From NCBI GenBank assembly GCA_965113315.1, contig OZ220364.1: a stretch of 64,000 bases of DNA; one strand, 5' to 3'. Positions 4,791 to 43,552 of the stretch are shown here, in pieces. The DNA comes from Podarcis vaucheri (Eukaryota). Position 1 is the first letter of the stretch. Each line of letters opens with the position of its first letter. The notes beneath the pieces are model-generated. The model made no database searches. It saw only the letters and a list, made by a program, of their open reading frames with translations, and was not told the origin of the DNA. The position numbers and the translations under genes were made by a program.

Positions 4791-5605
4791 GTTAAAACAG
4801 CAAAAAATGTATAGAACAAGTTCTAATAAGTGTTGGAAGTGTAAAGAGAAAGAAGGCACGTTTTACCACATGTGGTGGAATTATAAAGTAATCAAATGCT
4901 ATTGGGAAATGATTTATAATGAAATGAAAAAAATGTTTAAGATAACTTTTGGGAAAAGGACCAGAAGCTTTTCTGTTAGGCATTACAGGCCAGGACTTGC
5001 CAAAATAATGGAAGAAACTCTTTATTTACGCTACAACAGCGGCGAGGATGCTACTAGCTAAACCCAAATGGAAAGATGACAAGATACCAACAGAAGAAGA
5101 ATGGCAAGAAAAGCTGATGGAATACGCTGAAAAGGTGAAACTTACTGGGAAACTAAGAGACAAGGTGTTTCCTGCTTGGCAGGGGGTTGGACTCGATGGC
5201 CCTTGTGGTCTCTTCCAACTCTATGATTCTATGATTCTAAGGACAATAGAGACTTTAAAAAGGACTGGGAACCGTTTATGGTGAATCTACAGAAACATTG
5301 CAAAGAAGTGATCTCACGAGCAGGGTTTGAGTAAACACTTACAATTAAGAAAATAAACAAAAAAAGTTAAGAGACAATAAAGGGGTAAATAATAAAACAT
5401 AAGATGTGACTTGGGAAATAGGGCATAAAAGTGATAAGAATATAACAATATTTAATTAAAAGATCGAAAAATTAAGGTACAACAAATTAGGCAGGACAAG
5501 CAATATTTAAAGAACGAGAAGGGGAAGCTGAGGGAAGCCATTGGAGGGGGGATCTATATATGCTATATGTGATAATGATTTTGTTGAAGATAAAATTGTA
5601 TATAT
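4791..5605 (+). mobile_element. 5'-truncated L1-clade LINE (ORF2 C-terminus plus 3' UTR)
   Basis: CWKCKEKEGTFYHMWW motif in frameshifted ORFs 4807-5284; 16-bp TSD ATCACACAGGGAATCT at 4775-4790 and 5606-5621. Confidence 0.85.
5164..5239 (+). mobile_element. CR1 extreme 3' end nested inside the L1 fragment
   Basis: (ATTCTATG)n tail; near-identical to the reverse complement of 58574-58650. Confidence 0.9.
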
Positions 5606-14365: not shown

Positions 14366-14770
14366 TTATTCAAAGTTTAAGGTTTCAAAAAGAAAAAAGA
14401 ACAATACAAAATATAAAAAAGAATACAACAGTAACAGAAAAGAAAGAAAAAGAAGGTATAAAAATACATTCTATTAAAAAAAATTAACAAAAAAGAACAG
14501 ATTAAACCTTTACATAGCTTTCTTCCTTTACTTATTTCCTTGACCTCCTCACACCTCCCAATTTTGTATTCTAATTCAAGTCGTTTTTTCAGCAAATCCT
14601 TCCAACCTTATTTTCATTTAAGTAATTTAATTTAAAATAATATAGTTTAACGTCCTCTCTTTCATCACTTTCATCAGTTTCTCTCATACTCTGGTTTCTC
14701 TTCTATGGTTTCTCTCATACTCTCATACTCTGGTTTCTCTTCAGATCATATAAATCTTTCGCCTTTTAGT
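14366..14770 (-). mobile_element. L1-clade 3' UTR fragment related to 42780-43160
   Basis: Shares GACCTCCTCACACCTCCC...TTTTGTATTCTA...TTTCAGCAAATCCTT with the reverse complement of 42920-42976. Confidence 0.75.
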
Positions 14771-29154: not shown

Positions 29155-29725
29155 TTTCATATTTTTAAATTTGTTTTTAAATAATGTAAACAAATTACAA
29201 ACAACAATTTAGAGTCCAAATATTGAGATTACAGTACTCTGATTCTCCTGACTTCCCCCAATCCCTTCCCTGGGTCCTAATGATAATGTTTACAACTGCA
29301 TTTCAACATGAATCCAATTTTTTATCCTTCTAACTTATCCATCCTTTCTGTTACTTTACAAGTGCGGTTAAAATCCTGTCGATGTGTTAACTTGCTTGCA
29401 GTGGTCTCTTAAGGAAATCATAAACTTTTCCCATTCTTTTTAAAAGTTTTTGTCTTCTTGATTTCTGAGCATCCCAGTTAATTTTGCCATTTTGGCATAG
29501 CCCATCAGCTTGGTTTGCCATTCTTCTCTAGTCAGGGTTTTTTCTTCCTTTCATTTCTGGGCTAGTAGCATCTGTGCGGCTGTTGTCGCATCCATGAATT
29601 TTCTGGTCCTTTGGTACCTGTAATTCCAAATAAAAAGGCTTCTGGTTTTTTCCGCAAAAGTTATTTTAAACATTTTTTTCAATTCATTATATGTCATCTC
29701 CCAAAAAAAATAATTACTCTACACG
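29155..29725 (-). mobile_element. L1-clade 3' fragment
   Basis: Reverse complement is similar to 4900-5330 (GAAATGATATATAATGAATTGAAAAAAATGTTTAAAATAACTTT-type and EEWQ.KLM.YA-type segments). Confidence 0.7.
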
Positions 29726-39610: not shown

Positions 39611-41029
39611 GTAATTACTCCTTCCCTCGTTCTTCTCTCTCACTCTCTTTCTCGCCTGGACATATTTCTAGGAATGTCTTATTCTTGATCATTTAAATGC
39701 TCTAAAACTGAGAAAAAAACATATGTCCTTCCCAAATGTTCACTGAGATTTGTATTGCTGAAAGTTGGGTGTATGGGGCAGGCAGTATGAGGCAAGCTTG
39801 TCTCAGCTTCAGAGGCCCACAGATTTGTGTACATGGACCAGCAGTGGATTTCTAGAGTTCTGGACAGGAGTCTCTACTAGATGTTCTACCACTGAGCAAT
39901 CGCCCTTTCCTAACGATGTAATCCACACTTGTGTGATTGGGATAATTCTAGAAGATTTATCCATATCCTTGGGTGCGGAAGTGGGTCAACGCTTTGCCAC
40001 TGCTGCAATACCAGTCAGAATCAAGGGGCCTTGCCCCCACTATTTGCAATGGCAGAAACATTCCCACTTATTTATTACCAGCAGCCTTGTGTACAACGTA
40101 GCTCAAAATTCTGAGAAGCGAAAACTTCAGGGCAGTTTTGAAATCGGTGGTTGAAATCAGTGTGGTTTTGAAAGACTCTGCCATTTTCAAAATTGTGCAA
40201 ACAAGCGTAGATGGAAACCTGCTCCTTGGTCACAGGAGCCATTGTGCGCAATTTGGTTAAGATCAGTGTGAGGTTTTGAAAGGTTCAGTTCAGCCATCTT
40301 GATTCAAAATGGCGTCCAACTGAATCCAAACATCTCCTCGCCGACTGCAGGAGAGTGACAAAGAACCATCCGTGCCTTGTATGCTGGAAGGTGCTCTTCA
40401 AACAGCAGCACCACATGGAAGATCCTCAACACTCCTCATGAGCTTGGAGCCAGGGAGCTCCCTCCCCAACACAGCTCCTCTGCCTCTGTAGATCAGGCTA
40501 AATGCCCCTGTATTCCAGCATCCTGTTCTCAGCGGCCAATAGGGATAATGAAATAGGATAACAAATACTTTAAAGAAATATATATGTCAAAGATAGATGC
40601 CTCAAAATAACATGTATGCACAAGGGGTACCATTTACTCAATTAATCACCCACCTGGAAGCATCCCCAATCGGTGCAAACAAATGCTTCCCTACTAAACA
40701 AGCTATTGCAGTGTTTTCCCATTTCCTAGCAAAGCAGTTCCTGATCAGGGTTCCGTACAACCTAGACAGAGCTTCGTATTCTCGCTGAGGATTTCAGAAG
40801 GAACGTTCCCCCCCTCCCCTTTCTCACTGCACTTGCCGTATTATTATTATTTTGTTATATTACTGAGCGAATGGGAATATCATGGGGAGAAGAGGGCTGT
40901 TTATTTAAATTTTACAGCACTCATCAGTCTCACAATAGTGTTAATGTGTTTTTGGAGGAGGGGAGAGTGGAAAAAACAACAACAACAATGCTACCTTATT
41001 GAAAGTCATTAGGAATTTGAAAGTAATCC

Positions 41030-43167
41030 GTCCGGGTTAGCGCCTCTGGCAATGGCGGATTTCCTCTGACCGGGAGGAATCCGCTCTGTGGAGATCAGGG
41101 TCTGGACCGCCACGGCGAGGCAGAGACCCACTAAAAACCACAGGCGGGAGAAGCCTGTGGACGTGGGATTTGGCTGGCACCTTTTGCGCCTCCCCTACTC
41201 GCGGGGAAACCCAGTTTCGGGGATCCGGAGCGACGTGGGGTGAGCGGCGCGGTGCTTCGAATCAACTGCTTCTTTCATGGAGTGAAGCCGCATTGCTGTT
41301 GCCGGAGAGCGCTGACTTTTTCCTGTGGACAATTGGACTTTAAACAACTACCCGTGAGTAGAACGGAAAATTGGATCTTTAAACATCTTAATTTGGCACC
41401 GAAACGGGAAGGTTTCAAACAGGAAGTCTGCCTTCCTCTTTTGTAAATAGATTGAAGCAAAGGCGCTGCAAGCTAAAGTCTTGGAAAGCCGTTTCTAAAG
41501 GATTAAATTTCCATTGGTTAAAACTACTAAACCCCCCTTGGAAGCAGGAGAAGAGGGGGGAAATTTTAGATTGCCTAAGCCTGCAGGAGAGAGAGTGAAG
41601 AAAGATAAATTACCACCGTTTTGAACCTGGGAACGGGCTGCCAGTAAGATCGACGTTTTGGGAAAGTTCATTGACTGAATAAAACGTATGCTGACAGACA
41701 GTTAAATAAGAGAAATATATTGTTTCCATTGTTTCTTTTTGCACTTAAAAAGGAGCAAAAGTAGCTGAAAATTGAAAGTAATTTTGTTGCTGGATCTGCA
41801 TTTAAAAGGACGGATACAAATAGAAATTGTTTCCTCTAGAGGGAGCTTTTGAAACTGTTGCAGGAGTGGAGCTGGGGAATTTTCCAGCTGCAGAGATTAA
41901 AGACCGTGAGAATCAGAGATTGACCTTGGACAAGAATGTCAACAGAAGAAGCCTTAGTGATTGCATTTTGCAAGATAAGTGCTTTATTGGAACAGCTTCA
42001 TGAGAAGATGGATGTGATGACTACTAATATTGATAATTTGGGACAAAAAATGACTGATTTGGGACAAAAAGTGAATACCTGTACAGAAACTACTCAGGAA
42101 TCGATTAACGAATCCACTTTGACATGGCAAGTTGTGGAGAAGACGAGGGAGAAAGCTGTTGTTGAACCCCAAGTAATACAAGTGGAGAGAGCCCCAGCCG
42201 TTCAGAGGCAATTTGATGAATATAAGCTGTTGCCTTCTACGATTGAATTTAGAGAAAGCCAGATTTGGAGAGATGGAGTCCCGCCTGGATTGGAGAAGGA
42301 AAGTTGGATAGATCCCCTTATGCAGGGATGCTCTGGCTTTTGGGATCTGGATTTGGGTCAGGGGGAGATTGGAGTTGTGGGGGCCTTTAGCTTCGGAGGG
42401 ATTTTGAAACACGCTCTGAAATATCTTATGGACTTTAGTTTTGACTATGGAGAATGGGCTGACCTGTCGAGAAGGAATAAAGACATTGGTAGGTTGGAGT
42501 TTCCCCGAGCTCTACTCCTCAGCGCCAAAGGAAGGAAATTAAGAACAAGATCAGCAGAAGATAAAGTTAAGTGCATGTATAAATATGAAGAAGATCTGCA
42601 GAAGGGACATGGAAAAGAGTTAAGAGCCTTGGACAGAAGATCACCAGGTTGATGGACCATATGGAATTGATAGAAAGGACTGACAGAATCCGAGACCAGG
42701 GAGAAGAGACGGTGAAAGAAGATTGAAAAAAAGTTTAACATTTATTTAGAGAAATATTGTAAAATTAATGAGTGTTAGAAAAATGTTGGAATGAAATTAC
42801 ATGGCTTTAGTAGAAACGTTATAAGGAGTTAAGTTCAAATAAGTTTTAGGGTTTTAATGGTAAGATAAGGTTAAAATAAATCAAGATAATTAAATGACAG
42901 AAAACAGTGAAAGATGGAAAGGATTTGCTGAAACAATTAATAACTAGAATACAAAAAAGGGAGGTGTGAGGAGGTCGATGAAACAAGTTAATGAAAGACA
43001 AAGATATGGAAATATTGGATGTGTTTTTAATTGTTTTTGTTTTGATCTATTGTGTCTTTTGTTTTTTTTAATGTATTGTAATGTATTGATTTGTATTGTT
43101 TACTTTTTCTCTTTTTTTACTTCTTTCTGTAATCTTTAAACTTTTAATAAATATTATTTTAAAAAAA
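41030..43167 (+). mobile_element. Full-length non-autonomous L1 derivative (ORF1-only, half-L1-like), 2.14 kb
   Basis: 19-bp TSD AGGAATTTGAAAGTAATCC at 41011-41029 and 43168-43186; CpG-rich 5' UTR; ORF 41936-42652; short ORF2 C-terminal remnant; AATAAA at 43146; A-tail. Confidence 0.85.
41936..42652 (+). CDS. L1 ORF1p-like protein, 238 aa (element-encoded; expression unknown)
   Basis: Uninterrupted ATG-started ORF with heptad-like N-terminus (IDNLGQKMTDLGQKV, 21-nt repeat) and a C-terminus loosely resembling the ORF1 CTD; sits at the ORF1 position of a TSD-flanked element. Confidence 0.55.
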   Translation: MSTEEALVIAFCKISALLEQLHEKMDVMTTNIDNLGQKMTDLGQKVNTCTETTQESINESTLTWQVVEKTREKAVVEPQVIQVERAPAVQRQFDEYKLLPSTIEFRESQIWRDGVPPGLEKESWIDPLMQGCSGFWDLDLGQGEIGVVGAFSFGGILKHALKYLMDFSFDYGEWADLSRRNKDIGRLEFPRALLLSAKGRKLRTRSAEDKVKCMYKYEEDLQKGHGKELRALDRRSPG

Positions 43168-43427
43168 AGGAATTTGAAAGTAATCCACAAGTAGGATGCC
43201 GGTGCTGAATGCTTTTGAGCAGAGAGAGATGGTTTGCTGTTTTTCTGATGACTACATTCAGTGTTCTTTCCTGCGGCCGTCCATCTCTGAGACATGTTAT
43301 CAGGTAGAAAGGTGGCCCATAAAGGTAAAATAAAATAGTCAATAAATAAAAGGCACTGCAGATGGAGGGATGGGAACTAAGGAGGATAGGGAGTGCTAAT
43401 CCTTCGACATGTTTGCTTTATACCTAG

Positions 43428-43552
43428 GATGGCCCTTCCATATCTTACAATGCTCAGACGACACTAAAAAACTTCTGTCAGTGGCAGCAGACCCAGAACC
43501 ACCCTAACGAAGATCATCCAGAAAAGCATGACACAGCTGTATTGGTGACAAG
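43428..43552 (+). CDS. ADAMTS9: ADAMTS9 exon 6
   Basis: Acceptor cctag|GAT; reads [42 protein letters not shown]; donor AAG|GTATGT; 125 nt. Confidence 0.96.

Follow-up and report, generated by a model that had tools for sequence, protein, structure and literature searches.

Among described retroelements, those closest in design to the one reported here are the half-L1 (HAL1) elements of mammals, reportedly treated by Smit (1999) and by Bao & Jurka (2010). The present element occupies positions 41011 to 43186 of a 64,000-nucleotide stretch of DNA from the lizard Podarcis vaucheri (NCBI GenBank assembly GCA_965113315.1, contig OZ220364.1; this whole stretch is called the window, and features lie on its + strand unless marked otherwise), and it belongs to a family of L1 derivatives that keep ORF1 as their only open reading frame (ORF). 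HAL1 has been described from mammals, and the architecture defined in the available text of three sources (PMC5753468, PMC5786205, PMC5322556) is shared by the lizard family: L1-derived and non-autonomous, with a 5' untranslated region (UTR) and ORF1 only, a poly(A) end, target-site duplications (TSDs), and an origin by internal deletion of a resident L1. The lizard unit has L1 descent, an ORF1p homologue as sole coding gene with neither endonuclease nor reverse transcriptase (RT), and amplification with TSDs and an A-tail, but it lacks the full coiled coil-RRM-C-terminal domain (CTD) set of a working ORF1p that the accessible HAL1 accounts assume. Set against mammalian HAL1 as described there, it differs in its descent from a squamate clade-1 L1 and in its ORF1, which has neither the basic N-terminus nor half of the RRM, is as little as 24% identical from one subfamily to another, and terminates with a conserved RxPG motif made by the deletion junction.

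Other systems offer partial parallels. The ORF1mneoI reporter, a HAL1 proxy, is likewise an ORF1-only L1 RNA and is moved in trans by ORF2p; however, the available portion of PMC11260458 has the reporter needing its own RNA-binding ORF1p under an ORF2p-only driver, whereas the lizard product is unlikely to bind RNA, so that in the lizard a helper would have to supply ORF1p. HeT-A (Jockey) and Ag-Sponge (CR1) are ORF1-keeping, bipartite non-autonomous LINEs for which multimerisation with helper proteins has been proposed (PMC5786205, in its accessible part); they belong to other clades, and the accessible text on them does not report a frame maintained after destruction of the RNA-binding domain. 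With the lizard clade-1 L1s (PMC5381506, in the portion available) and its own parent (copies L241 and L271-L276), the family shares the GACTTCCGG...ATGGCG start, the long 5' UTR, the coiled coil-RRM-CTD order of ORF1, the ORF2 end and the 3' UTR, but it lacks ORF2, is about one third as long, and is more numerous among 5'UTR-bearing copies. No description of a squamate HAL1 or of a gutted but open ORF1 turned up in the literature searches, including the available text of PMC5203782 and PMC3787681, although Repbase, Dfam, Bao & Jurka 2010 or supplements may hold one.

The observations reported below comprise the family, its parent, the four deletions that separate them, a frame kept open on the master lineages, a nearly free middle, and conserved ends. 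On balance, we lean narrowly towards a high-copy, enzyme-less L1 derivative with a gutted but open ORF1 of fixed ends, one that likely took both ORF2p and functional ORF1p from its parent L1, likely needed translation in order to be copied, and carries a predicted degron as its tail.

A multi-copy family and its parent L1

The preliminary description of this locus, made from the window's letters, had proposed a squamate family on the strength of a single copy, and the genome bears this out. A 20-nt pattern across the ORF1/ORF2 junction has 869 exact matches and its reversed control none; these genome-wide matches rule out a one-off deletion at the window locus. A search with the junction returned 3376 first-look candidates, of which the 40 scored are 96-100% identical, and an 18-nt 5'UTR pattern has 729 exact matches (reversed control 0). 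Since the exact junction pattern is retained in 53 of 88 sampled copies, junction-spanning copies are estimated at ~1,400. Among 98 loci picked by similarity 70 are full-length, and 59 of these 70 have a TSD of at least 10 nt; family TSDs measure 12-25 bp. A sample unbiased with respect to ORF state was formed from 90 of the first 100 listed 5'UTR-motif matches, and contains 77 loci with a junction-spanning alignment, two full autonomous L1s, and a remainder that is truncated or interrupted; the ORF is intact in 27 of 80 alignable copies.

The parent is a clade-1 L1 represented by L241, which aligns with the element end to end and has L271-273 and L276 as its closest sisters. On the tree, 168 family copies form one clade, sister to L271-273/L276. 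Four deletions separate the element from L241: ~149 nt at the start of ORF1, 126 nt in the RRM, 31 nt in the ORF1 tail, and 3716 nt from the end of ORF1 to the last codons of ORF2. A SpIRE or other splicing origin was rejected because none of the four is bounded by GT-AG. The family outnumbers the parent by 88 to 2 in the 90 sampled 5'UTR-bearing copies, or ~30:1 after correction for motif retention. No full open ORF2 occurs among 150 parent-family matches (longest 999 aa), and ~30 of 150 matches of other L1 families have one. Tip lengths of ~2% (family) and mostly 2-5% (parent) make both look recently extinct.

Root-to-tip distances range from 0.07 to 0.58, with most tips at ~0.02; the subfamilies inserted at roughly equal time and diverged at very different rates. 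Substitutions on the master lineages are strand-skewed (ratios of 3.6 for non-CpG C>T/G>A and 2.7 for T>C/A>G, versus 1.5 and 1.9 on tips), and the parent L1 shows the skew too (2.7, 2.5), so that it seems to stem from the way L1s are copied in this genome. A predicted Podarcis raffonei gene (P0003, LOC128406054), in which an ORF1 coiled coil of parent type is joined to RT sequence from ORF2, probably reflects a faulty gene model laid over a decayed L1.

A profile search retrieved 19 proteins, including a Podarcis lilfordi 'hypothetical protein' belonging to one subfamily and far more divergent unnamed Logan proteins. One such Logan protein used as query gave 150 scored matches in the genome, a deep branch from which 12 copies were fetched. 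These have the same design and measure ~2.0-2.1 kb where both ends were found; 10 of the 12 have open ORFs of 212-215 aa that are 24-28% identical to the window ORF, every open ORF stops at the same junction, and a TSD is detectable in 4 of the 12. Identical-scoring deep-branch copies repeated near contig ends (C10:134.93-135.00 Mb, C25:107.81-107.88 Mb and C1:0.16-0.17 Mb) are probably carried by a subtelomeric segmental repeat. Two other copies (L193 and L199) lost the ORF start through different 5' breakpoints and resume at a near-identical place (~42511 in window coordinates); they are unrelated singletons and not GT-spliced. Nesting was seen at L106:300-1968, where one L1 is inserted within the ORF2 start of another, and L287 is an antisense family copy beside L1 ORF2 pieces.

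Anatomy of the window copy

In the window sequence, a perfect 19-bp TSD (41011-41029 and 43168-43186) encloses 2138 bp, exactly as first described. The 5' UTR, with the L1 internal promoter region, spans 906 nt (41030-41935), agreeing with the ~900 bp given earlier, and its CpG-rich start is reflected in 6, 6 and 10 CpG per 100 nt over the first 300 nt. The YY1-like site reported at 41051 is present as AATGGCGG; by sequence match, this ATGGCG motif (41051-41058) lies within the lizard clade-1 5' consensus. Other family copies begin GACTTCCGG, as lizard clade-1 L1s do, and the window copy lacks the first few of these bases. The single open ORF of 238 codons (41936-42652) stood up to re-examination, and comparison with the parent identifies its start as the parent's internal Met52, so that it encodes a degenerate ORF1p. 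Parent alignment places the in-frame 126-nt deletion at 42397/42398 and the ORF1/ORF2 junction, product of the 3716-nt deletion, at 42645-42648. The ORF2 C-terminal remnant that had been recognised here (42648-42778) represents the last ~43 codons, lies in two frames and is homologous to the ends of intact ORF2s in the same genome; translation and copy alignment indicate that its frame was not maintained. Neither endonuclease nor RT is present, in agreement with the earlier account. The 3' UTR (42779-43145) is ~80% identical to that of the parent in alignment, and is followed by the expected AATAAA (at 43146) and A-tail (together 43146-43167), the latter of merely 7 nt.

Selection on the open reading frame

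The suggestion in the preliminary description that the ORF stayed open under selection holds for the frame and for both ends of the protein; most of the amino-acid sequence, however, drifts almost freely. On internal branches with at least three descendants, the codon changes number 430 nonsynonymous, 274 synonymous and 59 multi-hit, with no stop among them; the unbiased tips have 656, 314 and 53 of these, and 34 stops (Fisher p 8e-9). Multi-hit codons were tallied apart, as they otherwise produce artefactual internal stops (5, falling to 0 on recount), and the empirical tip stop rate was used; a model-based expectation overshoots the tips (71 expected, 34 seen). A majority stop occurs in none of 55 clades. 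Of 22 shared indels in the ORF 16 are in frame as counted raw; of the other six, four compensate each other in two pairs and two are slips at homopolymers, each in scattered copies, whereas 8 of 53 shared indels in the 5' UTR are multiples of three. Omega is 0.74 on master lineages (p 1e-4), compared with a tip value of 0.91 and a parent value of 0.30, and no other part of the element is as poorly conserved as the ORF body (73-78% identity between subfamilies versus 80-90% in the 5' UTR).

Three further candidate signals were set aside. A sign of positive selection along the stem (omega 2.4 by parsimony, p 0.006) is suggestive only, given pairwise YN00 values of 0.57-1.29 against the parents; constraint specific to the CTD appeared in a first, biased sample (p 0.003) and was gone in a larger one (p 0.42); and within the ORF2 remnant, a mini-ORF beginning at a TGATG stop-start is broken in several subfamilies.

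Conserved ends of the protein

At the N-terminus, codons 7-35 (41954-42040, from the protein alignment) have a heptad pattern with hydrophobic a and d positions in all subfamilies examined (14 of 14 aligned family proteins), and residues 1-35 contain no proline. Large hydrophobic a/d residues are kept at 5-8 of 7-8 positions within residues 7-35, versus 48-80% beyond residue 46.

At the C-terminus, the last 11 codons (42617-42652) are 72% identical between deep and near lineages, versus 23% elsewhere, and synonymous differences are alike in the two regions (39% versus 40%). The Arg at -4, the Pro, the Gly and the stop are near-invariant and have synonymous variants, -3 varies (S/L), and -5 varies freely. 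R-x-P-G-stop is found in 155 of 168 copies (4 gapped) and in 10 of 10 open deep-branch ORFs; the alignment with L241 reveals that the C-terminal Gly and stop were created by the ORF1/ORF2 junction. By motif definition, R-x-P-G-stop matches the Gly-end and RxxG C-degrons, making the tail a candidate degron. Most deep-branch copies (L297-L308) have two more in-frame stops directly after the ORF stop (TGA TAA/TAG TAG); these would keep read-through from extending the C-terminus.

The same stretch could be read differently. Proline near a stop slows termination, and because the conserved 11 residues end in Pro-Gly-stop and deep-branch conservation halts at the stop, they might form a termination-stalling peptide that holds ribosome and nascent helix on the RNA for capture by the helper, comparable to the ribosome use proposed for Alu. 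A ribosome-association model for trans-mobilised RNAs, as set out in the available part of PMC11260458, would accommodate such a peptide. The S/L variation at -3 and the freedom at -5, however, fit the RxxG pattern, and a literature search brought up no LINE precedent for stalling; we hold this explanation to be improbable. To a similarly low degree we credit the proposal that only translation matters, as an escape from RNA decay, with an inert protein and a tail that is an RNA signal or the result of 3'-end exchange between subfamilies. It would account for an omega near the tip value and for the main-clade conserved block running on into the ORF2 remnant (88-91%), where synonymous changes are also reduced; yet no RNA structure signal was found at the junction or in the 3' UTR (mean z 0.1 around the junction), the deep-lineage tail differs at synonymous sites and directly after the stop, and the heptad pattern and the proline-free residues 1-35 also count against it.

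What remains of ORF1p

The family ORF is a genuine ORF1p derivative, being 54% identical to the parent ORF1p over the aligned residues (BLASTP E 4e-61), and the homology presumed at the outset is thereby established. Human L1 ORF1p ranks first for the parent profile (E 0.001) and the parent model (E 0.003), with E-values that are modest. Searches of Pfam, PDB sequences, a 5.8-billion-protein collection and Atlas with the window ORF gave no ORF1p match, including none to Pfam Transposase_22; these searches are uninformative because genuine host ORF1ps also miss Pfam and a genome search with PF02994 gave no match anywhere.

The earlier view of a remodelled ORF1 with its coiled coil kept and its RRM shortened requires revision in part: the RRM is indeed shortened, but the coiled coil looks intact only in its N-terminal part, and the first 51 codons and the tail are also lost. 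Pro78 is present in 7 of 7 family ORFs and 0 of 5 parent ORFs. The 126-nt deletion takes parent residues 224-265 (42 RRM codons), about half of the RRM, with strand 3, helix 2 and most of strand 4, and one subfamily (18 sampled copies) has lost a further 99 nt of it. With the basic N-terminal 51 residues absent, net charge is -5 to -10 in the family versus +6 to +8 in the parent. RNA chaperoning by such a protein is, judging from its sequence, unlikely. That the protein still works in cis as a remodelled ORF1p chaperone, the role assumed for mammalian HAL1, is very improbable: weak purifying selection and a CTD region that is colinear with the parent and partly conserved agree with it, whereas the halved RRM, the acidic charge, a structure model with a predicted local distance difference test (pLDDT) below 50 beyond residue 41 (from a shallow alignment) and the missing N-terminus, which is required in human ORF1p according to the available text of PMC5940361, all speak against it.

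A proposed mechanism

The gutted ORF1 with fixed ends may be explained in three steps. Transcription would start from the L1 5' UTR, with reverse transcription in trans by parent-family ORF2p, as the TSDs, A-tails and retained L1 ends suggest. Secondly, a ribosome would have to reach the stop near the 3' end, which would stabilise the RNA and retain it on polysomes, and the N-terminal helix, while still being synthesised, may bind helper ORF1p and so tether the RNA to L1 particles; retention of the frame indicates that translation was likely required, and retention of the helix hints at tethering during translation. ORF1p, too, most likely came from the helper, because the family protein is unlikely to bind RNA and lacks the basic N-terminus; in human cells, an ORF1-only reporter with RNA-binding-dead ORF1 is immobile when the driver gives only ORF2p (PMC11260458, in the portion available). 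We regard these two steps together as fairly probable. In the third step, the released protein would be dominant-negative on helper ORF1p, which it would poison, and a Gly-end/RxxG degron would therefore remove it. The accessible text of the literature describes suppression of L1 in trans by truncated ORF1p (PMC5605252), C-degron reading of -PG by KLHDC10 and of RxxG by APPBP2 (PMC7458402), and Gly as the rarest natural C-terminal residue (PMC9098119). This third step is nevertheless doubtful. A fuller version, in which the family was a defective-interfering L1, that is, a translation-dependent hijacker with a coiled-coil tether, a free spacer and a host degron that arose with the founding deletion, was maintained by selection in lineages 24% identical and spares the helper, is put forward as a distinctly tentative idea.

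Several points weigh against the preferred reading. The heptad signal is modest, its a/d positions were chosen by eye, neutral simulation gives it a joint probability of 0.04-0.10 per lineage, and the comparison of internal with tip N/S at a/d positions is not significant (p 0.18). Lineage pairs in the 11-residue tail comparison are not independent, and within the main clade the last 23 codons also show fewer synonymous changes (19 versus 37 on tips), so that RNA-level constraint or homogenisation may contribute to conservation of the tail. A minimal degron is shorter than the 11 residues conserved here, and for APPBP2 a Gly at -1 is suboptimal. In human cells, a coiled coil stripped of the N-terminus did not pair with full ORF1p and did not suppress it (PMC5605252, in the part available); the family protein lacks that N-terminus, which weakens the case for a tether as well as for a required degron. 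Finally, copies of the deep branch were chosen by protein score, a criterion biased towards open frames, and the branch, found after the tree was built, is absent from it.

Surroundings of the element and RNA reads

The next exon (43428-43552) belongs to a host metalloprotease gene of ADAMTS type, putatively ADAMTS9, on the same strand as the element, which would lie in its intron 5 by the preliminary description. The element is thus in sense orientation, and its poly(A) signal lies 282 nt before the exon start, in accordance with the ~280 nt described at first. In the RNA runs examined, from a related organism, this exon has next to no depth. Reads on the element in three such runs are mostly 90-95% alike and derive partly from ORF2-bearing L1s; in run X1, contigs extend only 20 and 29 letters into the window insertion, less than the bridging rule demands.

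The 3' UTR had also been described as shared with 14366-14770 (-). The two are 70% alike over 274 nt, but the latter belongs to another family, being the 5'-truncated 3' end of a sister autonomous L1 whose other copies continue into ORF2; it contains a small internal duplication and has 1797 first-look candidates in the genome. Old fragments of the L1 ORF2 C-terminus lie at 4800-5250 (+), where another insertion interrupts it, and at 29464-29704 (-).

Implications

The family extends HAL1-type parasites to lizards, and does so at high copy number. It touches on two open questions, namely why elements with ORF1 alone retain it and by what route Pol II transcripts gain access in trans to L1 ORF2p, the ORF1p-dependent trans route being termed unexplained in the available text of PMC11260458. 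As a natural experiment repeated over many lineages, it allows 'being translated' to be separated from 'making a working ORF1p', and it singles out two short peptide ends as targets for mutation in a standard assay. If the tail is a degron, this would be a transposon exploiting host protein disposal to spare its helper; under the defective-interfering version, a family that outnumbered its parent so heavily would have been the hijacker of an L1 with which it apparently stopped together.

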